From assembly GCA_049513715.1 (NCBI GenBank), contig JBEKVV010000001.1:224001-288000 (forward strand): 64,000 nt of DNA, in the 5' to 3' direction. Below, piece after piece: positions 49,776 to 58,422 of this stretch. The notes under the pieces were generated by a model. The model saw only the letters and a program-made list of their open reading frames with translations. It ran no database searches and had not been told where the DNA came from. Positions within the stretch are counted from its first letter, which is position 1; each line of letters opens with the position of its first letter. Both the position numbers and the translations under genes were made by a program. The DNA comes from Candidatus Bathyarchaeia archaeon (lineage in GTDB: Archaea; Thermoproteota; Bathyarchaeia; 40CM-2-53-6).

Positions 49776-50582
49776 TTACTCCTCGAGTGTAACCTGCTGG
49801 TTTTCTTGGAGCTTGATGCGGTGCCAACGTGCATCAAAACCAATATCCTTCATGCTCCTCAGGCGAATCAGATTCTGGGCTGGGTCAGAAGTCTCATCAA
49901 GCTTGAAATCCACCACTCCATCGGCAGCGGCTTCGAACCGCTTGTAGACCCAATCGCTATGGACGCCCTTGATGAGGCTAGCTATGATTGTTGTATTGCG
50001 GAACTTAGCCATGGGAATAATCCTAGTCAACGAGAATTCAACCCAGTTTTTCTCCTCGTTGAATCGAGCCAAGATAGAACCGTCATCTATGATATTCAAT
50101 GAAGTTGGAAGAGGGGGCCCTCGCAACTGTTCCTGTGAGTAAAAGATACTCAGATCGGAAACCTTCATGGATCCGATGGCGAATGGCTCATTAGATTTCT
50201 GGCCGAGTGCCGCGGTATACCAATCCCAAATCCGTAGCTTTCCTTCTTCTTCTAGGGTCTTCGGATCTAGGCCCTGGCGTTTCAACTTGAGACGTATGCT
50301 CTCTGGGGGTTGTGTGGAGACGCTGTAGCTGACTTTGCCCCCGCCCTTTATCCACCCCACCACAATTGTGAGGGAAGCATTGAACCATTGTGAGGCGGGG
50401 TCGAACTCAACTAGAAGGTTTGTTCCCTGCGGCACAGGGCCAGTGGTCAATTCTTCGATTAGTGGAATTCGCACTGTCAGTCCCTGATCTAAGGGAGTTC
50501 GTACATGACTTAACTTCTGATGCTTGTTCCGAACAAATAGAGAGGTAGGAGACTGCCTGGCCGCTTCATCGTCTCTAGGCAC
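49776..50582 (-). CDS. KaiC/RAD55-like RecA-fold protein with degenerate Walker A
   Basis: RIPLIEELT, LLVEFDPASQW in place of the P-loop, IWDWYT, ADGVVDF; true start probably ~50474. Confidence 0.75.
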   Translation of the reverse strand: MPRDDEAARQSPTSLFVRNKHQKLSHVRTPLDQGLTVRIPLIEELTTGPVPQGTNLLVEFDPASQWFNASLTIVVGWIKGGGKVSYSVSTQPPESIRLKLKRQGLDPKTLEEEGKLRIWDWYTAALGQKSNEPFAIGSMKVSDLSIFYSQEQLRGPPLPTSLNIIDDGSILARFNEEKNWVEFSLTRIIPMAKFRNTTIIASLIKGVHSDWVYKRFEAAADGVVDFKLDETSDPAQNLIRLRSMKDIGFDARWHRIKLQENQQVTLEE

Positions 50583-50880
50583 CTTTCGAGGTCGCGACCA
50601 ATGTCTCCGTTGACCCTAGCTCAATGCTGCACGCATCGAACAATTCTTGCAAGTATTGACCCATCGTTGTCAAATCGGGTGCGCGCCATACTACGACCAG
50701 GTCGTAGCGCCCGAGTGTGACGAAGGTGTGATCCTCGTGTATCCCTCGCTTGTGTCTGGCCAACTTCTGGTCCGCTTGGTCGATGGCTTTCATGAAGTTG
50801 GTCGGGGTCTTCCCTGGACTGAGTTTGACAAGTGTGATGAAGTAGTGCGCCTTTGTTCCGTCTGGCGCAGTAATCGGCAT
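50575..50880 (-). CDS. GYD domain protein
   Basis: YFITLVK, TLGRYDLVVV..APD, STETLVA; start at ATG 50880. Confidence 0.75.
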   Translation of the reverse strand: MPITAPDGTKAHYFITLVKLSPGKTPTNFMKAIDQADQKLARHKRGIHEDHTFVTLGRYDLVVVWRAPDLTTMGQYLQELFDACSIELGSTETLVATSKGA

Positions 50881-51110
50881 TATTGCAAATCGATTAGGCA
50901 AACTGTTCACCTCAACAAACTGTCCACTTCGGTACCATATATCGCTTTGCAAAGAGCAATGGTTTTTGAGGTTGGTTTTTCTCAAGGCGGCGAGATTTGG
51001 GAAATTCGTAAAATAGGAAAATTCCCGGACACAGCTGTCCTTGAGCGGTAACGCCAGTCGACTTTGGCATCTTCCAAAATCCGGAGTGGGATTAAGGGGT
51101 CCCTCGAGGT

Positions 51111-51422
51111 CTAGGCTGGATTGGCCTTTTCACAGTCGTAAATGATTTCTCGCTCAAGTGCCCTGCCCTTCCTGAACTTCCAAATTTCAGCTCGGCCGCG
51201 GAAAGCTTCAGCCCACACTTTCAGCGTCTCTTTCTCGGTTTTGCTTGCGCGGCCCTTTCCGCTCTTTACTTGAACCATTAGAATTCGGCCATCCCGGCCT
51301 GCAAAGATGTCAACGGGGCCGTGGGAGGCTGCGCTGCGGCTGCAATACCACCCTTCTTGCCTCAATTTTCGCAGCACCTGGTACTCGCGGCTACGGCCTC
51401 TAGTATAGGGTGTGGAAACCAT
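51111..51422 (-). CDS. hjc: Hjc-like Holliday junction resolvase
   Basis: RGRSREY, RSAAS.GPVDIFA, VQVKS (PD-(D/E)xK variant with Q). Confidence 0.8.
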   Translation of the reverse strand: MVSTPYTRGRSREYQVLRKLRQEGWYCSRSAASHGPVDIFAGRDGRILMVQVKSGKGRASKTEKETLKVWAEAFRGRAEIWKFRKGRALEREIIYDCEKANPA

Positions 51423-51549: not shown

Positions 51550-53241
51550 GTGGGACGACCCGCTTTGCGCTCTTCAACCCGCCTGCTAGTTTTGTCAGCG
51601 CTATTTGTGGGCTTGTTTGCTCTTCTGAATCCAGCTGTTCGCGCCCAACCCATTTACACCGTCACAGTCACGGTTCAAGGGTTGCCAGATACTGCGAGTA
51701 CAGTGGTCTACGTTGACGGTGGCGCAAACGGAACTCTCTCTGGCGGCCAATCGCGCACATTCACTTTCATGTTCGCGAGCTCACCTCACATAATCACAGT
51801 GGACTATTACGTTCCTAATGTCGGAGCCAACGGCACGAGGTATTATGATAAGGATACTTCTTGGACGTTCAACGGCACGGCCAACCATGTCTTCACTTAC
51901 GTGACCCAATACTACCTTGAAGTGAAATCCTCATACAGCACATCGGGAGGGCAGGGATGGTATGACGCGGGGACGTCGGTTCAAGCCACCATTCAGGACG
52001 CTCAAGTAGGCGAGGGCGCGGGTACTCGGAACGTCTTCGCTGGTTGGTCTGGAGATGCGACCGGCAAGGATCTGAGTTCCGTAACTATATCCATGAATGG
52101 GCCGAAGACAGCAGTTGCTACTTGGAAAACGCAGTTCTACCTGAATGTAGAATCCGACCCGCCTAGCGTCAGCAACCTGAATGGGTCAGGTTGGTACGAC
52201 GCAAATAGCGTTGCGAATTTCTCCGCGCCCACAGTCATATCAGCGAATGACAATTCTCGGTTGAGGCTGAGTCATTGGACGGGTGCCTACAGTGGTAGCG
52301 ACCCTACGGGCAGCACTGTGATGGATCAACCCAAGTCGGTTAAGGCGAATTACATCGCACAATACCTGCTAACCGTAGAGTACAATCCACACAGCATCAC
52401 AACTTCCTACAATGAAACCCACACCGGCTGGTTCGACGCGAACACGAACGTGCAACTCGGTCCCGCACCGGCCACAATCACGCTCAGCACTGTGGAGAGG
52501 ATTCGATTCCTACAATGGGATGTGGACGGCAACACAAGCACCAATCTTTCGATGACGGTCCTTATGGACAAGCCGCACAAGGTTGCGTTGGCGTACAAGA
52601 CACAGTACTTCGTTGAAGTTCGCTCGTCCTATGGTTCAGCGACTGGGACCGGGTGGTATGACCAAGGGTCAACCGCAACGATAGCAGTCGCTGCGACGCA
52701 GGGAACATGGCCGATTTCATACGCGCTCACAGACTGGCGCGTAGATCCACCTACTGGAACGCTGACAAAAACGGGCGATTCATGGTCGTTGACTGTTGAC
52801 CGGCCATATGTCGTTGAAGCGGATTGGAACCTAGATTACGTGCCACTAATACTTGTCTTCGGTGGTGGTAGTGTCGCCATCGCCGCGGTTGCAGTTGGTA
52901 TTTTCTTCGCCAACCGGCGGGGGCTCTTCAATTTTGGTGGTCCAGTCCTCGGCTCTTTAGGACCAAAATCGAGGTTGCCGCGCATTCCTAGAGGGAGGGG
53001 AAGGGTCTGTAGCAGTTGTGGCAATCGCATCCCAGAGGGTGCGACCTTCTGTCAGAGATGCGGAGCGCCTGTTAGAGCGCCTGCTGTGCCGCCTTCTACT
53101 CTAGATGATAAGGTGTACGATTACATTGTCAAGCATGAAGGCGTGATTTCTACGAGCAAAGCATCGAGTGACCTGGGGCTGTCGGTTAATGAACTGAAGG
53201 AAATTACGGAGAGGTTGAAAAAGAAGGGGCTACTGACCTAG
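51550..53241 (+). CDS. Type I membrane protein: extracellular beta-repeats, TM, cytoplasmic zinc ribbon and winged helix
   Basis: Signal peptide; four QY..L.V...GWYD repeats (divergent InlB B-repeat-like); TM; CSSC..CQRC; LDDKVYDYI...LKKKGLL wHTH. Confidence 0.75.
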   Translation: MGRPALRSSTRLLVLSALFVGLFALLNPAVRAQPIYTVTVTVQGLPDTASTVVYVDGGANGTLSGGQSRTFTFMFASSPHIITVDYYVPNVGANGTRYYDKDTSWTFNGTANHVFTYVTQYYLEVKSSYSTSGGQGWYDAGTSVQATIQDAQVGEGAGTRNVFAGWSGDATGKDLSSVTISMNGPKTAVATWKTQFYLNVESDPPSVSNLNGSGWYDANSVANFSAPTVISANDNSRLRLSHWTGAYSGSDPTGSTVMDQPKSVKANYIAQYLLTVEYNPHSITTSYNETHTGWFDANTNVQLGPAPATITLSTVERIRFLQWDVDGNTSTNLSMTVLMDKPHKVALAYKTQYFVEVRSSYGSATGTGWYDQGSTATIAVAATQGTWPISYALTDWRVDPPTGTLTKTGDSWSLTVDRPYVVEADWNLDYVPLILVFGGGSVAIAAVAVGIFFANRRGLFNFGGPVLGSLGPKSRLPRIPRGRGRVCSSCGNRIPEGATFCQRCGAPVRAPAVPPSTLDDKVYDYIVKHEGVISTSKASSDLGLSVNELKEITERLKKKGLLT

Positions 53242-53243
53242 GG

Positions 53244-53666
53244 TTAGAATGGCCAAGACCGGTTCTGTTCTTGCGGCTGGTAAACTATCTGAGGTTGTTG
53301 TTCGTACGCGTTGGGTGGGTGGCCAATTTTCGGAGCCAAGCCCCAGTAGCATTCAGGGCAGAAGTTCAGCATACCGTACTGTTTGTTGCACCCGGCGCAA
53401 ATGGATCTGCCACACCGAGAGCATACATATGACGACGGCAACTCGTTATGGTAGTAGCATGTTCCCGGCCGCGATACGTTCCTAGGGGTGTAGATTGGTG
53501 GAGCCATCGGGCTCGGGCCCGGAGTGGGCAAGCCAGTCAGCGGGGACTTCACCTCAACTTTGACGGGTGGTGTAAGTGAAGGCGCTTGCGATACTGCCGC
53601 TCCACAACTGTAGCAGAACTTAGCATTGTCTGCGTTGCCCCTGCCACAAACTCGGCATATTGCCAT
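53244..53666 (-). CDS. Zinc-ribbon + B-box-like protein (soluble)
   Basis: CRVC..CYSC, Pro-rich linker, CYYH-x7-CSRC-x4-CAGC-x8-CPEC; start at MAICRV. Confidence 0.8.
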   Translation of the reverse strand: MAICRVCGRGNADNAKFCYSCGAAVSQAPSLTPPVKVEVKSPLTGLPTPGPSPMAPPIYTPRNVSRPGTCYYHNELPSSYVCSRCGRSICAGCNKQYGMLNFCPECYWGLAPKIGHPPNAYEQQPQIVYQPQEQNRSWPF

Positions 53667-53823
53667 GTCGTGTACCTTACAAAGAACTGCTCTCATGCAT
53701 TTCTTAACAGTTACTTACCCTGAAATGCTTCTCTCCATTCCCTTTCGCCACAAAACAAGGCTATTTCAGCGAGTGACGCTGCATTGGCTTATGAAATATG
53801 ACACGGTTGATGCAAAATCATTC

Positions 53824-55074
53824 CTAAATCAGCCTGAGGATTGATTCGCGCAGTTCTCCGTTTTTGCTTTCTGAAATGACTTTCAGGTAATCCCCATGTG
53901 CAAGCTTCTTAACCGCTCTAGGGAGAGGCTCTAGGCTTTCCTCTCCTTTGATGGTTTCAGTGAAAATTCTGACTTGTGCTTCTGTTCTGAGAGCTTCTCG
54001 AATCGCGCCTTGCGGAGTCTGGCTTGAGGCGTGGATTTTCGCGAGCACAAAGTCGAGTCGCGGCACAACTTCCTTTGCAGTTCCATCTTTTCCGCATACG
54101 AAGCATTTCTCGCCTCGCTTCAAATCCATTTGTGTAAATCGGTTGTTTTTCATGTCAATGAACAGTACTGATCGCAAGGGTGGCCCGCTTGTCTCTGGCC
54201 ATTTGTGTTTCTCTTGGAACGTTGCGAGTCCCAGGATCAGTTTGGTGGTTTCTTGGGCGACGATTGAGGAGACGAGTGAGATTGAGGTCGCGAAAGATGG
54301 AACGGCTTCCTGTTCTAATGGTGCATCGCATGGGTTTCGTAGACCCACGATGTGTGAGTATTGGTTTGGCGGGAACATGCAGATTGGGCAAGGGTCTTCG
54401 GGCGGGATGTAAACGTGGACTCTGGCATTCAGGCCAGTGATACCGCCGTCGACCAGGGGCGTCGAGTATTTTCTGCTTACTTGTGTTAGGAAAATCCTTG
54501 AGACAACATTGTCGAGTCCGCAAACAATCACGTCGGAATCCAGGTAGAGCTTCAAGGGCAGCGATTCCAAATCGCCCCTAAAGGCTGCGGTTTCCACGAA
54601 TGGATACTTTTTGTGTACGTTTTTTGCGAGAACCTCGGCCTTGTTCTTTCCCAAATTGGTGGGTTCGAAGAATATCATGCGGCTGACGTTTGACATTTCT
54701 ACTTTATCGCGGTCCACAATGAGAAGTTTGCCGATTCCAAGCATCGCCAGATTCTTGGCGACTTCGTTTCCTATGGCGCCTGCGCCAGCGATAAGGACGG
54801 TTGAGTTTCTAATCTTATTCTGCCCGTCTGAGCCCCAGGCAATTAGGTGCCTTGCCCAAAGGTAGTCTACGACCACTGGCTCGCCAGACACTTTGAGTTT
54901 CGACACTCGGGTTGCGTCAGGGAGATTTTTCCCTGCCAGAAGTAGTCTTGTGAGTTCCGGCTCGATGCCGAACTTTGCACAAACAAGTTTCTTGAGATCT
55001 CTGACAGTCTGGTTGGGGCTCAGCTCCATCTCGATTTGTTTGTATGAGGGAATGGAGGCTTTCAGGCGCATCAA
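53824..55074 (-). CDS. Ubiquitin-activating enzyme E1-like protein with N-terminal Ubl domain
   Basis: AGAGAIG, DRDKVEMSNVSR, GKNKA, GLDN..SR, CPIC and CFVC Zn pairs, putative catalytic Cys in RNPC; N-terminal beta-grasp pattern. Confidence 0.9.
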   Translation of the reverse strand: MMRLKASIPSYKQIEMELSPNQTVRDLKKLVCAKFGIEPELTRLLLAGKNLPDATRVSKLKVSGEPVVVDYLWARHLIAWGSDGQNKIRNSTVLIAGAGAIGNEVAKNLAMLGIGKLLIVDRDKVEMSNVSRMIFFEPTNLGKNKAEVLAKNVHKKYPFVETAAFRGDLESLPLKLYLDSDVIVCGLDNVVSRIFLTQVSRKYSTPLVDGGITGLNARVHVYIPPEDPCPICMFPPNQYSHIVGLRNPCDAPLEQEAVPSFATSISLVSSIVAQETTKLILGLATFQEKHKWPETSGPPLRSVLFIDMKNNRFTQMDLKRGEKCFVCGKDGTAKEVVPRLDFVLAKIHASSQTPQGAIREALRTEAQVRIFTETIKGEESLEPLPRAVKKLAHGDYLKVISESKNGELRESILRLI

Positions 55075-55670
55075 GTGGACGCCCTATGCTCTTTCCCCGG
55101 AATACTGAACCTGACAATGTCCCTGGGTCCTGAGGGTGTGACAGGTACTCGTGGGACGGGAACGACGTTGAAGCGGAGAGTGTCGTCAGCTTCTTTCTTG
55201 GGTTGTTGTTTGACCTTGGTCATCTTCGGGAAGCCGTAGGAACGGCACACGTTTGCCGCCTTCAGTGACCGGGGATGGTCGAAGACGTTCGAAGGGTTCG
55301 GGTCGGTTAGGAGGTAGTGTAAGGCGTTAACAACTGAAATGAGCCTGAGGCGCGGGTCCCACTTATCCCCGAGGATCGAAACGCAGACAGCGTTCGGTAT
55401 GTTCGGCACAATGTTGGGGTGTGAGATGTCGGAAAGCCACATTGCTACCGGCGGCTTCAGGGGGTACTCTGGCGTTAGGTCTAGCCGAAACCGGTTCCAG
55501 TCAGTGTACTCAGTGAAAGGCCAGACGCCCTTCTCGGAGAGCTTCTTTACCTCACCCTTCTCGCAGCGAATCAGGCCCTCGAATTGGGTGGGGGGGTCGT
55601 TGAGGGCCGTGATCGTGGGGAACTGGTGGTTCAGCAGGGTCTTCTCTTTGTAAAGTACAGTGGTGTCCAT
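55071..55670 (-). CDS. Ubiquitin-conjugating enzyme E2 (UBC fold)
   Basis: EYPLKPP, HPNI, catalytic Cys in VCVSIL, WDP, LLTDPN. Confidence 0.93.
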   Translation of the reverse strand: MDTTVLYKEKTLLNHQFPTITALNDPPTQFEGLIRCEKGEVKKLSEKGVWPFTEYTDWNRFRLDLTPEYPLKPPVAMWLSDISHPNIVPNIPNAVCVSILGDKWDPRLRLISVVNALHYLLTDPNPSNVFDHPRSLKAANVCRSYGFPKMTKVKQQPKKEADDTLRFNVVPVPRVPVTPSGPRDIVRFSIPGKEHRAST

Positions 55671-55681
55671 TTGGGTTGGCC

Positions 55682-55924
55682 TTACCCACCTATGATGTTG
55701 TACGGCATGAGGGCAAGTTGAGCGTTCTCGGGAATACCCAACCGCGCTACGGTTGTACTCTCGTCAAGTATGGCTCCACCATACATGAGAGCGACGGTGG
55801 TGGGATCGACGTTGAAGGACTGGCAGACCTGCTGCTTGATTTCGCCAACTGTGTGGTCTGGAATTACGTCAATCTCCGCCAAGCCTGTCTGCGGCCCGAT
55901 TGGAGCTTGGACGAACAGTTTCAT
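55682..55924 (-). CDS. Ubiquitin-like protein ending in diglycine
   Basis: MKLFVQ..TVGEIKQQV..LMYGGAILDESTTV..GI..IIGG-stop; SD GGAGGTGA at 55935-55942 favours ATG 55924. Confidence 0.9.
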   Translation of the reverse strand: MKLFVQAPIGPQTGLAEIDVIPDHTVGEIKQQVCQSFNVDPTTVALMYGGAILDESTTVARLGIPENAQLALMPYNIIGG

Positions 55925-55980
55925 CTGCGATGATTCACCTCCGCTCATGCTGGTCTGGCAATTCTATAGAGGAGCTTAAA

Positions 55981-57534
55981 CTATCTTACTATGAATTGAA
56001 TTGCCTGGGAATGGGTGACTCCGCCACCCGACGCGTTGATGGTTAGGGTGTATGATCCCCGTTTTACTGCCGTGGTTGTCGTGATTTGGAGTGTGATGGT
56101 GATGGTTCCGGTGCCACCGACCGTGTTTCCGCTTGTGGTCAGTTTGTACGTTGCCCCTTGAGGAAGGCCGTTGACAGTTACCGCCACAGGGTCTACGAAT
56201 CCGTGTTGCAAAGTTATCAGCAGTGTATAGGCGGTTGACGTCCCCGCAGACACCTGCGCAAGACTCGGCGAGACTTGCAGGTCAAAGTCAGCGACGGTGA
56301 CCGGTATCGTAACCTGGCGCGTAACTGGTTGGGCTCCGGAGGGGGAATAGGTGCTTTTCACCACAATTTGATACGTGCCGTTGGGAGTCGTTTGGGATGC
56401 TGCGAGTTTCATTGTTACTTTGGTCAAACCAATCGGAACGGGGTTGGGGTTGAAGCTTATCGCCAACCCGGATGGGGCGCCATCCGCAGAAAACGACACT
56501 TGTTGGCTGAAATCATTGATCATGAATAGATCCACTTCCTCAGATGCCGTTTGTGTTCGGTAAACGGTAAGCGTCGGAGTTCCTGGGGAGAGCGCAAAGT
56601 CTGAGATCAGGATTCGATATTGGCTTGTCTGTTTCTGGTTGCCTGCCTGATCAGCTGCCGCAATGTAGTACGCCAAGTTTCCAGTAACCTGCTGGCCTGG
56701 AATCGTGTACCCGTAGAAGCTTCCTTGCACCAGCGTCATTTTGACCGGGGCCAAGTTTGCGCCGGGTGCTGCGTAGTATAGTGTTACGTCTCGAACTGGG
56801 CCGGTAACGTTAGCTGTGATCTCAACGGGTGTTCCAACAGTGCCGGTTAGAACTGGGTTGTGAACAATCGCCAAGCCTGATGTCGACGGGGTGCCCCTGT
56901 ATAATATTGCGCCGATTAAGCCCGCGGATGCCACGAGCGTTATGAAAACCACGACCATGAGAGTGGTGCTTATTCGCTGCTTTGGCATGGGTCGGGGTTG
57001 GGGCGGGAGCAACTGTTGCTGCCGCACCTCGATCGTTGGCGTGGGTCGAGTAAGGGCTCTGGTTGGCTCCCGCGGGGTTGCCTCAAAGGCTTCTTCGGTT
57101 CGAACGCTCACCATTTCTTCAGGTATCCGAAAGGGTTTCTTGGTTTGTGGGTCGATTCTGAAGTATCCCACTTCTCCCGTGGTAGCGTCTATAACGACAC
57201 CTGTGACGAGGGAAGAGAACTGCTGAAGGGTCCTCTGTGTCTCAATGTCGGTTTCAGAAAAGAACACTCCACCCTCGGTGTGTGAGTGGTACCATCCTAC
57301 AATGTTGCCTTTCACCCGCCCACTAACCAAGTCATCGGCAATTTGGGCGAGCGTTGAGGGAGGTAGCGTTACTCGGTGCGGTTCTGATGAGAATTCGCCG
57401 GTAATTGAATCGTCAATAACGATGGAGTCACTTTCGCGCCGGCCAAGTAGAAGGCCGATTATTTCGTTTCTTGTCTCATGTGAAGCCTGGACGATTCGGT
57501 CGTAGACAGGCTTCCATATGCTCACATAAGACAA
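55981..57534 (-). CDS. JAMM/MPN+ isopeptidase with TM helix and predicted extracellular beta-rich domains
   Basis: EIIGLLLG...GWYHSHTEGGVFFSETD intact JAMM motif; TM LMVVVFITLVASAGLIGAILY; Thr/Val-rich C-terminal repeats (DF.L..SP). Confidence 0.9.
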   Translation of the reverse strand: MSYVSIWKPVYDRIVQASHETRNEIIGLLLGRRESDSIVIDDSITGEFSSEPHRVTLPPSTLAQIADDLVSGRVKGNIVGWYHSHTEGGVFFSETDIETQRTLQQFSSLVTGVVIDATTGEVGYFRIDPQTKKPFRIPEEMVSVRTEEAFEATPREPTRALTRPTPTIEVRQQQLLPPQPRPMPKQRISTTLMVVVFITLVASAGLIGAILYRGTPSTSGLAIVHNPVLTGTVGTPVEITANVTGPVRDVTLYYAAPGANLAPVKMTLVQGSFYGYTIPGQQVTGNLAYYIAAADQAGNQKQTSQYRILISDFALSPGTPTLTVYRTQTASEEVDLFMINDFSQQVSFSADGAPSGLAISFNPNPVPIGLTKVTMKLAASQTTPNGTYQIVVKSTYSPSGAQPVTRQVTIPVTVADFDLQVSPSLAQVSAGTSTAYTLLITLQHGFVDPVAVTVNGLPQGATYKLTTSGNTVGGTGTITITLQITTTTAVKRGSYTLTINASGGGVTHSQAIQFIVR

Positions 57535-57588
57535 TCGTTACACCGAAAGTAAAAAGGGAACAAAAAATTGGGGACCCTTGCGGGGTTG

Positions 57589-58422
57589 CTAACGTCCCAG
57601 CATGCCGAGTATTCCGCCCAGCACGCCAAGGACGAAGCCGGCCACAAAACCTCCGCCAATTATCAGACTCATTACAGCCAGCGGGAAGACAACGATGCTT
57701 CCGATGGTTCCGTACCCTAGTAGCATCAAAATCGAACCGATCACTAGGATGAGTCCGATGATAGCGCCGAGAGCGAAGGCAAGGCTTTGTGGAATCGATG
57801 TCGGTGGAGCCAACCAGAAGAAGATGCTCGACCACATTGTGTAGAACGAACTGGAGAGCAATGCTGCTGCGTTGAGTATGACCAGGATTCCTGCAATCAT
57901 GGAGAGTATGAATCCCCACAGAGCTCTTGGCGCACTCGGGGCCATGAACGGTCCCGGATAGGGTGCTGGCATGAAGGACGCTGGCGGGCCTGACATCGGT
58001 GGGGCCATCATTGGTCCCATTGGTGGGGCCATCGCTGGACCCATTTGAGGTGCGTAAGCCGGACTGTATTGGGGTGCCGGTTGCTGCGGATTTGCCATAG
58101 GTTGTTGGGCTGTCATAGGCACTATTCCTGCGTAACACTGAGGACAGAGAACAAGGTCCATATATGCTTTAGAGTCGTCTCTGCAGATTGCTCGTCCACA
58201 GCGGTTGCAAACGTAGATTGCTGGAAGGTTCGGGTGATAGAAGCATTGGCCAGGTGCTGGAACCCTAATTGGGCCGCCGGGGCTGACTGGGGTTACTACG
58301 CGGACTGATGGGACTGGTTTGAGTGCTGGGGCCATTGCGCCTGCAAGTGACGCGCCACAACTGGAACAGAATGCTGCATCGTCGCGGTTGTTGTAGCCAC
58401 ATGATGGGCATTTCTTGACCAT
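57589..58422 (-). CDS. Zinc-ribbon + B-box-like membrane protein
   Basis: CPSC..CSSC, CFYH-x7-CNRC-x4-CRDD-x8-CPQC, Pro/Met/Gln linker, C-terminal multi-TM; SD AGGAGGA and CTTAAG upstream. Confidence 0.82.
   Translation of the reverse strand: MVKKCPSCGYNNRDDAAFCSSCGASLAGAMAPALKPVPSVRVVTPVSPGGPIRVPAPGQCFYHPNLPAIYVCNRCGRAICRDDSKAYMDLVLCPQCYAGIVPMTAQQPMANPQQPAPQYSPAYAPQMGPAMAPPMGPMMAPPMSGPPASFMPAPYPGPFMAPSAPRALWGFILSMIAGILVILNAAALLSSSFYTMWSSIFFWLAPPTSIPQSLAFALGAIIGLILVIGSILMLLGYGTIGSIVVFPLAVMSLIIGGGFVAGFVLGVLGGILGMLGR

Follow-up and report, generated by a model that had tools for sequence, protein, structure and literature searches.

A eukaryote-like ubiquitin-type gene cluster with predicted membrane-linked parts in an order of Bathyarchaeia

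Does an archaeon of the class Bathyarchaeia run a eukaryote-like ubiquitin cascade at its membrane, and what would serve there in place of a RING ligase (E3)? The question is raised by six genes at 53244-58422 of a 64,000-nt stretch of DNA from Candidatus Bathyarchaeia archaeon (hereafter, the window). Eukaryote-like archaeal ubiquitin cascades are the main evidence on the origin of ubiquitin signalling; to our knowledge, the cases described so far come from Caldarchaeales and Asgard archaea and employ RING ligases. Bathyarchaeia rank among the most abundant archaea of peat and sediments. An earlier reading made from the letters alone (the sequence-only reading) had placed at this site, all in one direction and in this order, genes for a transmembrane (TM) zinc-ribbon/B-box protein, a TM-anchored JAMM protease, a ubiquitin-like modifier (Ubl) with a Gly-Gly end, an E2, an E1 and a soluble zinc-ribbon/B-box protein. 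This arrangement was confirmed on the minus strand, with the Pfam families as named (Table 1). Based on sequence comparisons, we conclude with moderate confidence that the cluster is probably a working eukaryote-like system for conjugating and removing the Ubl in one Bathyarchaeia order, set at the cytoplasmic face of the membrane, with the two finger proteins as its likely E3s or adaptors.

Catalytic parts and layout of the cluster

The JAB, ubiquitin, UQ_con and ThiF matches and both Zn_Ribbon_1 matches exceeded the curated Pfam cut-offs. The Ubl matched the ubiquitin family (PF00240, 7.4e-10), as well as the TUG-UBL1 and Rad60-SLD models, and not ThiS or MoaD in the Pfam search. Its C-terminus, ...IIGG, lies directly before the stop codon, and the Gly-Gly was conserved in 21 aligned Ubl sequences, followed by short tails in a few lineages (GGSC in locus L003 and GGTL in L093). 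Sequence matches in the PDB were ubiquitin and the Ubl entries of Caldiarchaeum subterraneum (6fj7, 6fnn and 2mqj, about 1e-6). The E2 (4.9e-14) was the sole UQ_con match in the window genome; H84-P85-N86, C96, W104 and P124-N125-P126 were invariant across 22 sequences, four of them from Caldiarchaeum-type clusters, and the best PDB matches were eukaryotic Rad6/Ubc2 proteins (1.4e-12). Two short motifs, RFN[IV]VP[VI]P and D[IV]VRFxIPG, are conserved in its C-terminal tail.

The E1 (ThiF, 5.5e-48) begins with a ubiquitin-family domain (PF00240, 5.2e-10, residues 11-68; domain about 1-72). Residues G97, G99, A100 and G102 (GxGxxG), D121, D123, N129, R132, K145, D188 and N189, together with the zinc CxxC pairs at 229/232 and 324/327, were invariant in 21 sequences, and Cys249, in the short crossover loop RNPCD, was kept in all 17 Bathyarchaeia-type sequences. 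The C-terminal domain of ~85 aa aligned with the Ubl/ubiquitin-fold domain (UFD) of Caldiarchaeum-type E1s, and no Pfam family supported it. The adenylation domain found its best PDB matches in eukaryotic Uba1 (2e-28), with ThiF behind at 5.9e-19, and all matches to MoeB, ThiF and UbaA models fell far below their cut-offs (e.g., the SAMP-activating E1 model at 3.7e-26, scoring 92 bits where 450 are required). In the JAMM protein (JAB, 2.5e-11 on residues 13-106; Prok-JAB, 2e-9), E24 was nearly invariant and H83, H85, S93 and D96 were invariant among 23 full-length homologues. Its profile was closest in the PDB to the Rpn11-like protein of C. subterraneum (6fjv, 1.3e-20), followed by CSN5 (1.8e-15) and then Rpn11; the NCBIfam desampylase model gave a weak match (9.8e-6, 25.5 bits; cut-off 130 bits). 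The sequence-only reading had judged the catalytic motifs to look intact, and those of JAMM, E2 and E1 indeed proved invariant or nearly so across 21-23 homologues each. The best PDB relatives of the E1, E2, Ubl and JAMM protein therefore indicate that these parts are eukaryote-like and not of the MoeB/ThiS/SAMP kind.

The same reading had called the architecture membrane-centred, which agrees with the finding that the JAMM protein and one of the finger proteins are membrane proteins. The JAMM domain (residues 1 to ~130) is followed by a linker, a TM helix at ~190-212 and an Ig-like region of ~300 aa; because it lacks a signal peptide and basic residues precede the helix, we infer that it lies on the cytoplasmic face. 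Its homologues formed 173 clusters, and the 120 listed showed 44-99% identity, 112 of these covering at least 98% of the query. The mode of attachment varies: a TM helix with an Ig-like ectodomain occurs in most lineages, the C-terminal part differs in L016-L018, L020 and L021 (multi-TM in L020), and the JAMM protein of family f12 (L093) carries a bare tail anchor. Going by these predicted topologies, membrane attachment of the JAMM protein persists across lineages although the attached part varies. As side observations, the TM finger and JAMM genes are separated by an insertion of 1.2-1.7 kb in L009 (5296-7001), L010 and L011; that of L009 holds an opposite-strand 374-aa frame, open at both slice ends, which looks secreted and contains WNG-type repeats. 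The window genome also has a second small JAB-domain frame (1.7e-10), which may serve a SAMP-type pathway as its housekeeping JAMM.

In gene order, the intergenic gaps computed from the coordinates are 54, 32 and 11 nt, then the E2/E1 overlap, and then 127 nt. The junction of E2 stop and E1 start reads ACTTGATG; the 4-nt overlap claimed by the sequence-only reading holds with a TTG start and shrinks to 1 nt with the ATG one codon on. The GC content of the cluster equals that of its surroundings, and the window genome comprises 2.79 Mb in 11 contigs (99.4% complete, 8.79% contamination). NCBI names of the E2 homologues were Bathyarchaeia, with a few short contigs with related loci binned as bacteria, in agreement with the proposed Bathyarchaeia-like host of a eukaryote-like Ub/E1/E2/JAMM cluster. 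The whole stretch was present in 20 wetland/peat DNA runs, some of them possibly its source. A sigma-70 promoter and terminator scan, whose model is unsuited to archaea, gave nothing above shuffled sequences.

Table 1 Coordinates of the cluster genes, their neighbours and related genes (positions without a prefix are those of the window; L, locus slice; C, contig)
Feature	Position	Strand	Length and remarks
TM finger protein (zinc ribbon/B-box-like, hydrophobic C-terminal half)	57589-58422	minus	277 aa
JAMM protein (N-terminal JAB/JAMM, one TM helix, Ig-like ectodomain)	55981-57534	minus	517 aa
Ubl modifier	55682-55948	minus	88 aa, or 80 aa from Met9; ubiquitin family, GG end
E2 ubiquitin-conjugating enzyme	55071-55670	minus	199 aa; UQ_con
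E1 activating enzyme	53824-55074	minus	416 aa; ThiF-type
Soluble finger protein (zinc ribbon/B-box-like)	53244-53696	minus	150 aa
Convergent ectodomain-TM-zinc-ribbon neighbour	51550-53241	plus	563 aa
Hjc-like nuclease gene	51111-51422	minus	Hjc 1.1e-8
KaiC-like ATPase and GYD-domain protein	49776-50985	minus	8-nt overlap
JAMM-less gene of family f4	L086:9595-10761	minus	
JAMM-less gene of family f4	L092:10298-11383	minus	
Second small JAB-domain frame	C2:301942-302250	minus	145 aa
Third finger paralogue	L082:6141-6506 (C2, about 460.1-460.5 kb)	minus	121 aa
Signal-peptide/ectodomain/TM/zinc-ribbon protein	L082:9540-10796	minus	418 aa
Ig-like-repeat protein with Gly-rich 4-TM module	C1:836287-838767	minus	827 codons
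Ubiquitin-domain membrane protein	L083:5282-6058 (C5, about 173.3-174.1 kb)	plus	258 aa
Neighbour of the 258-aa gene	L083:4380-5285	plus	
Neighbour of the 258-aa gene	L083:6216-7010	minus	
Cdv/ESCRT-III cluster	L084:4353-8199 (C1, about 731-735 kb)	minus	

Gene order and distribution

Twenty close loci were retrieved using the JAMM protein as the query, and the JAMM gene is present in all 20 for that reason. The six genes stood in the window order in 15 of them, and four more loci ended at contig edges (L007, L011, L014 and L015); Ubl-E2-E1 occurred in order in 19, and a soluble finger gene followed E1 in 18. A distant set comprised eight loci, drawn from six further families of the order and one other family of the class. 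There, Ubl-E2-E1 kept their order in all eight loci and the TM finger gene was found in seven, L088 ending at a contig edge. Conservation in relatives, which the sequence-only reading had named as a check on its proposal, was thus observed at both distances. Within the close loci, the Ubl was 86-97% identical to its window counterpart (in the 19 loci holding it), the E2 72-81%, the E1 58-69% and the JAMM protein 40-55%; the contrast between the first and last of these values indicates that the modifier is the most constrained part, like eukaryotic ubiquitin.

Using the E2 as the query, a match was obtained in 66 of the 401 genomes sampled from the phylum, the window genome included. Five were in the same order and one outside it, in family f12 of the class (1 of 2), and none was found in 49 genomes of six further families of the class (f6, f7, f8, f9, f10 and f11). 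The remaining 59 matches were weak (about 1e-8 to 1e-14) and came from other classes, including f24 (17/17) and f29 (24/24). Of 105 genomes of the window's order, 66 had the E2 and 67 the TM finger protein; E2 counts were 20/22 in genus g1 and 10/10 in g166, and 35/39 in the seven families other than f66. The two tallies were identical by family and, by genus, differed solely in g1, g166, g179 and g182. Together, the conserved order and the matching tallies suggest that the six genes were inherited, kept and lost together. One genome of g166 (G429; contamination 8%) held two E2 and two TM finger copies on different contigs (C20:12254-12829 and C4:233777-234352), which could reflect a duplication or a mixed bin.

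Finger proteins and their membrane-linked relatives

The soluble and TM finger proteins are paralogues, with 39-45% identity over a shared module consisting of a zinc ribbon and a second finger. The ribbon matched Zn_Ribbon_1 (3.7e-8 and 4.6e-6 in the TM and soluble proteins, respectively), and zf-B_box (PF00643) was matched below its cut-off (0.0028 and 0.0019, respectively) and by 19/19 orthologues at E<=0.05 (best 2.3e-4). Both ribbons show the RanBP2/NZF spacing C-x2-C-x3-N-x6-C-x2-C, with the spacing and the Asn invariant, and Zn_ribbon_RanBP (PF00641) was matched by 11 of 19 members (best 0.0011). The spacing of the second finger is C-x2-H-x8-C-x2-C-x4-C-x2-C-x9-C-x2-C, with eight ligands. 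In the TM protein, the ribbon residues C5, C8, N12, C19 and C22 and the binuclear B-box-like ligands C60, H63, C72, C75, C80, D83, C93 and C96 were invariant in 17 orthologues, an invariant Asp standing in place of the sixth ligand. The ligands of the soluble form, from a 19-orthologue alignment, are C80, H83, C92, C95, C100, C103, C113 and C116; across 65 diverse family members, C80, H83, C92, C95 and C113 were invariant and C100, C103 and C116 nearly so. Ribbon and finger are connected in the TM protein by a conserved, beta-strand-like linker, KPVPSVRVVTPV, and a P/Q/M-rich spacer and a highly conserved Gly-rich module of four TM helices (read from the alignment) make up the C-terminal part; the soluble protein has the linker PPVKVEVKSP and a Q/P/Y-rich tail. 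The linkers (VKVEVKSP and VRVVTPV) and the motifs of the E2 tail (window 55074-55223) are all short, hydrophobic, strand-like and Pro-ended and resemble SUMO-interaction motifs; they are candidates that might act as shared Ubl-docking motifs.

A profile search against 1.84 billion representatives gave 2173 proteins at E<=0.001 and 115 at <=1e-10. Most of the 58 family members inspected carry the ribbon-finger module in a small soluble or a multi-TM protein, and many other rows showed the zinc ribbon alone, repeated several times. The AlphaFold2 model of the soluble protein from the 65-sequence alignment had a mean confidence (pLDDT) of 81 overall and ~97 over residues 80-120, where a beta-hairpin followed by a helix is predicted; a model from the shallow 19-sequence alignment (pLDDT 52) was set aside. 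Foldseek against the PDB returned no matches at E<=0.001 for the soluble finger model. In VIA-align, the second finger was nearest to FYVE/Rab-effector fingers (Z 4.0-5.0 over 44-51 residues, root-mean-square deviation 2.2-3.2) and the zinc ribbon to RanBP2-type and NZF fingers (Z 2.9-3.8), the neighbours of residues 6-36 including the NZFs of Npl4, TAB2 and Trabid (Z 3.0-3.3; also a Foldseek row). Because Z-scores of 5 or less are common between unrelated small domains, our claim is limited to a cross-brace type binuclear finger, predicted to bind zinc, in both proteins.

The second finger shares with known cross-brace fingers (B-box, FYVE, RING and PHD) the eight zinc ligands and the central C-x2-C-x4-C-x2-C, but differs from them in its first ligand pair, C-x2-H, and no match reached a curated cut-off. 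Ubiquitin-binding NZFs carry a Thr-Phe pair after the second Cys, the basic phosphatidylinositol-3-phosphate-binding motif of FYVE domains is R(R/K)HHCR, and many RINGs carry an E2-clamping Arg after the last Cys. By inspection, the finger proteins have G-Y or G-R/K at the site of the Thr-Phe pair and lack the FYVE basic motif; the clamping Arg is not evident, a Tyr following the last Cys. The profile of the soluble protein found zinc-ribbon matches alone among PDB sequences (a double-zinc-ribbon protein at 5e-4, ArnA at 0.044), and the ESM Atlas returned 'hypothetical protein' clusters from Bathyarchaeota and nothing else.

These proteins are best understood by comparison with the operon of Ca. 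Caldiarchaeum subterraneum (Caldarchaeales), in which a Rpn11-like gene accompanies Ub-E2-E1-srfp, srfp being a RING protein, and which has been reconstituted in vitro (PMC5654768, PMC6043591). Clusters of this published kind account for the weak E2 matches at the phylum level: in L094, a Ub with the propeptide ...TVGGYGEPIRRAA and a divergent JAMM gene are followed by E2 and E1, and a published propeptide, ...TVGGCGEPIRRAA (supplement of PMC5654768), is close to that of L094. Three of the four Caldiarchaeum-type loci have a 76-80-aa RING protein after E1 and, nearby, a 231-254-aa multi-TM protein with a C-terminal RING. The spacing of these RINGs, C-x2-C-x11-C-x2-C-x4-H-x2-C-x10-C-x2-C, is nearly that of the Bathyarchaeia finger. 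Both types of cluster share a ubiquitin-family modifier, an E2 of the UBC fold carrying HPN and Cys, an E1 whose two CxxC pairs match and whose C-terminal domains can be aligned, the order Ubl-E2-E1 with a small zinc-finger protein after it, another finger protein nearby that is membrane-embedded, and short post-GG propeptides in some lineages; the Rpn11-like JAMM of the Caldiarchaeum type is, moreover, the best solved relative of the JAMM protein described here.

The differences are also considerable. Identity between the two types is merely 24-34% for Ubl, E2 and E1; the fingers here are of a zinc-ribbon plus B-box/FYVE-like kind and not RING by any model; the N-terminal ubiquitin domain sets the Bathyarchaeia E1 apart, as a 13-residue insertion and the motif-bearing tail do the E2. 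The JAMM gene is co-directional and its product fused to a TM helix and an ectodomain, whereas the Caldiarchaeum-type JAMM is divergent and soluble, and the TM finger protein carries the fingers at its N-terminus and the TM part at its C-terminus, the reverse of the Caldiarchaeum-type TM-RING. The sequence-only reading had overdrawn the contrast with Caldiarchaeum, given the multi-TM RING in three of four such loci and a JAMM protein ending in a C-terminal TM helix in one of them (L097).

The genome-wide search for RING/HECT and ESCRT genes (endosomal sorting complex required for transport) suggested by that reading found no RING or HECT: zf-RING_2 gave nothing above its cut-off in the window genome (best 19.7 against 27.3 bits), U-box and HECT models found nothing in the 99.4%-complete assembly, and the profile of the Caldiarchaeum-type srfp gave no match (best E 0.09). 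The finger proteins are therefore the sole E3 candidates found, if an E3 is used. The epithet RING-less stands as far as model matches are concerned, and needs qualifying on account of the RING-like spacing and a weak profile match of the finger; judged on these alignments, the RING may have been replaced by, or have diverged into, another cross-brace finger. By analogy of position, the soluble and membrane finger pair would occupy the place of the small RING and multi-TM RING of the Caldiarchaeum type.

Another predicted membrane protein is encoded beside the cluster, and modules of the cluster recur in others elsewhere in the genome. The convergent gene ends 2 nt from the soluble finger gene; its protein comprises a signal peptide, an ectodomain of repeats, a TM helix and a cytoplasmic zinc ribbon (Zn_Ribbon_1, 1.3e-7), with weak winged helix-turn-helix-family matches (0.01-0.13) at the C-terminus. 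It adjoins the cluster in 18 of the 20 close loci, and a related protein does so in all eight loci of other families; its product is a candidate partner or substrate of the system. Neither this conserved gene nor the E1 N-terminal ubiquitin domain or the multi-TM RING of Caldiarchaeum-type clusters had been mentioned in the sequence-only reading. An Hjc-like gene lies downstream in 14/20 close loci and is probably a syntenic neighbour outside the system, and an acyl-CoA dehydrogenase gene lies upstream in 8/20. Beyond the Hjc-like gene are genes for a KaiC-like ATPase (0.0016) and a GYD-domain protein (2.4e-4), both matches below cut-off.

Elsewhere in the genome, a third finger paralogue with the full ribbon-finger module stands alone near a thermosome gene, and the 418-aa zinc-ribbon membrane protein of Table 1 is encoded 3 kb away. 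A frame of 827 codons combines a signal peptide, a large Ig-like-repeat ectodomain, a TM helix, a zinc ribbon and a Gly-rich 4-TM module; the module shows 52% identity to residues 134-276 of the TM finger protein, the ectodomain repeats resemble those of the JAMM protein, and many genomes of the family yielded matching frames of 725-852 aa with such a module. In a 258-aa protein encoded outside the cluster, a ubiquitin domain at the N-terminus is combined with a TM helix and an ectodomain; PF00240 was just below cut-off by hmmscan (1.7e-5) and above it in the genome search (27.5 bits), and a multi-TM zinc-ribbon protein (301 aa) is encoded alongside. A Cdv/ESCRT-III cluster lies about 450 kb from the ubiquitin cluster and encodes CdvA (4.1e-14), a Vps4-like AAA ATPase bearing MIT and Vps4_C domains, and a pair of Snf7-like proteins whose matches (about 2e-5) stay below cut-off.

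A proposed cascade and its alternatives

The conserved catalytic residues suggest a cascade in which the E1 would adenylate the Gly-Gly end of the Ubl with ATP and take it up as a thioester on Cys249, from which it would pass to Cys96 of the E2 and on to lysines of the targets. From their position, co-occurrence and finger geometry, the two paralogous ribbon and cross-brace proteins, one soluble and the other presumably held in the membrane by its 4-TM module, may be E3 ligases or adaptors for the E2. The Rpn11-like JAMM, with its intact residues and its predicted topology, would strip the Ubl from targets from a cytoplasmic, membrane-tethered position, and may also mature the Ubl in lineages with a short tail after the GG. 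The targets would most likely be membrane or membrane-proximal proteins, and the system may serve in membrane-protein turnover or signalling, as the sequence-only reading proposed. A bolder proposal, which we put forward tentatively and regard as doubtful, is that the ribbon and cross-brace proteins form a distinct, unrecognised class of E3, maybe a sister or precursor of RING, B-box and FYVE fingers, and that with the membrane Rpn11 they make up an archaeal machine for membrane-protein ubiquitylation, an analogue or forerunner of ERAD (endoplasmic-reticulum-associated degradation) and ESCRT; the E1 N-terminal ubiquitin domain and the E2 tail motifs would then dock onto the fingers.

Several observations weigh against a membrane-set cascade with the finger proteins as E3s. 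Their zf-B_box scores (18.2 and 18.8 bits) are below the cut-off of 24.1, and the VIA-align ranking favours FYVE over RING, with PHD, LIM and RING fingers behind at Z 2.6-3.4, nothing above Z 5.0 and B-box structures not among the rows listed. The hhalign comparison of the finger with the Caldiarchaeum RING (44 columns, 6/8 ligands in register, E 3.5e-4, probability 37.5%) is suggestive and not proof, because cysteines dominate such scores. The Bathyarchaeia E1 lacks the catalytic-Cys insertion of ~50 residues carried by Caldiarchaeum-type E1s. In family f4, the gene that occupies the JAMM position has no JAMM domain but retains a P-rich linker, the TM helix and the Ig-like ectodomain, and the JAB genes of these genomes lie elsewhere (one of 171 aa in G492 is found 1.7 kb upstream of the E2); in L020, the place of the TM finger gene upstream is taken by other genes; and the soluble finger gene, found in six of the eight distant loci, is missing in two, so that no accessory part appears indispensable. 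Neither the E2 nor the TM finger protein was found in genus g163 (0/22) or family f66 (0/7), which makes the system non-essential. Finally, the short contigs obtained from four metatranscriptome-labelled runs include ones at 57492-57669 (TM-finger/JAMM junction) and 55643-55730 (Ubl/E2 junction); since such libraries can hold DNA, the contigs do not show one transcript and the uncovered parts are uninformative, they are weak evidence of expression and were not counted as transcription.

Among the alternatives, one keeps the cascade and changes the role of the fingers: the E2 would work without an E3, and the finger proteins would be receptors, adaptors or substrates of the Ubl at the membrane, loosely like ESCRT-0 or ESCRT-II, with an NZF-like ribbon and a FYVE-like finger. 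The ribbon pattern with its invariant Asn and the Zn_ribbon_RanBP matches in 11/19 members fit this idea, as do the nearest structural neighbours of both fingers, the Cdv/ESCRT-III/Vps4 cluster of the same genome and the recurrence of zinc ribbons and 4-TM modules in its other membrane proteins. Yet the structural scores are of a size common for unrelated pairs, the Thr-Phe pair and the R(R/K)HHCR motif are absent, the Cdv genes are distant, and the position after E1 and the soluble/TM pairing mirror the RING proteins of the Caldiarchaeum type; we consider such a receptor role unlikely, although it is the main rival. Asgard clusters, in which Ub, E1, E2 and an srfp RING often lie beside ESCRT genes according to published descriptions (PMC5654768, 10.1101/2020.10.19.343400), resemble the present one, by these descriptions, in having eukaryote-like Ub/E1/E2 in an archaeal operon and in the proposed link between ubiquitin and membrane remodelling; they differ, on the same descriptions, in that the Cdv/ESCRT-III/Vps4 genes here lie apart from the cluster and no RING was found.

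The sequence-only reading had also offered antiviral tagging, and a conflict system like Bil or type II CBASS that tags virus proteins at the membrane would have precedent, as bacterial E1/E2/Ubl/JAMM operons (BilABCD, and Cap2/Cap3 of type II CBASS) defend against phage (PMC10557695). Theirs, too, is a four-part Ubl/E2/E1/JAMM operon in a prokaryote, and its JAMM can pre-process the Ubl (PMC10557695); the dispensability of the system in g163 and f66 and the lineage-to-lineage variation of the JAMM-protein ectodomains point the same way. PADLOC (E<=0.001), however, left 7 of 8 submitted proteins unmatched, among them the E2, Ubl, JAMM, both finger proteins and the convergent neighbour, and its matches of the E1 to E1-E2 models (1.5e-17) cover the generic adenylation domain alone. 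Each genome has a single cluster, set in a fixed chromosomal context with the acyl-CoA dehydrogenase and Hjc-like neighbours described above, the family and genus tallies fit vertical descent with losses and not patchy transfer, the GC content does not stand out, and the extreme conservation of the Ubl is unlike fast-evolving defence genes; in contrast to Bil and CBASS, the cluster is vertical, syntenic and equipped with extra zinc-finger and membrane components. A defence function is thus improbable. We regard as more improbable still a sulfur-carrier or SAMP/Urm1-type system in which the E1 would activate a beta-grasp protein mainly for sulfur transfer with no E2 step. The E1 does match MoeB, ThiF and UbaA models, far below cut-off, and the SAMP/UbaA/HvJAMM1 (Haloferax) and Urm1/ELSA (Sulfolobus) systems likewise combine a beta-grasp GG modifier, a ThiF-type E1 and a JAMM protease; those systems are E1-only, whereas here a canonical HPN/Cys E2 is translationally coupled to the E1, which disfavours a sulfur-carrier role. 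Moreover, the modifier is of the ubiquitin family and not MoaD/ThiS-like, the E1 is closer to Uba1 than to ThiF, and no rhodanese domain was reported in the Pfam search of the window proteins.

The favoured reading, a membrane-linked conjugation and deconjugation system with finger proteins as likely E3s or adaptors, appears to describe a new architecture made of individually annotated genes. Single genes already bear public names, e.g. 'ubiquitin-conjugating enzyme E2', and the literature searched, in the parts accessible, describes no Bathyarchaeia ubiquitin operon, TM-fused Rpn11 or B-box partners, with the limit that the taxa of clusters I-III in Supplementary Fig. 1 of PMC5654768 are unreadable and may include Bathyarchaeia. 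One preprint mentions eukaryotic signature proteins including the ubiquitin system in its Bathyarchaeota metagenome-assembled genomes, and nothing more specific (10.1101/763623).

Overall, the cluster would extend the eukaryote-like cascade to a Bathyarchaeia order living in peat and wetland soils, with a different cross-brace finger at the place where a RING is expected and with ligase-like and deubiquitinase parts that both appear tied to the membrane. Its small and tractable set of proteins (E1, E2, Ubl, the 150-aa finger protein and the JAMM domain) offers a means of asking whether non-RING fingers serve as E3s, and the cluster bears on the evolution of E1 domain architecture and on whether membrane-linked ubiquitylation may predate eukaryotes.

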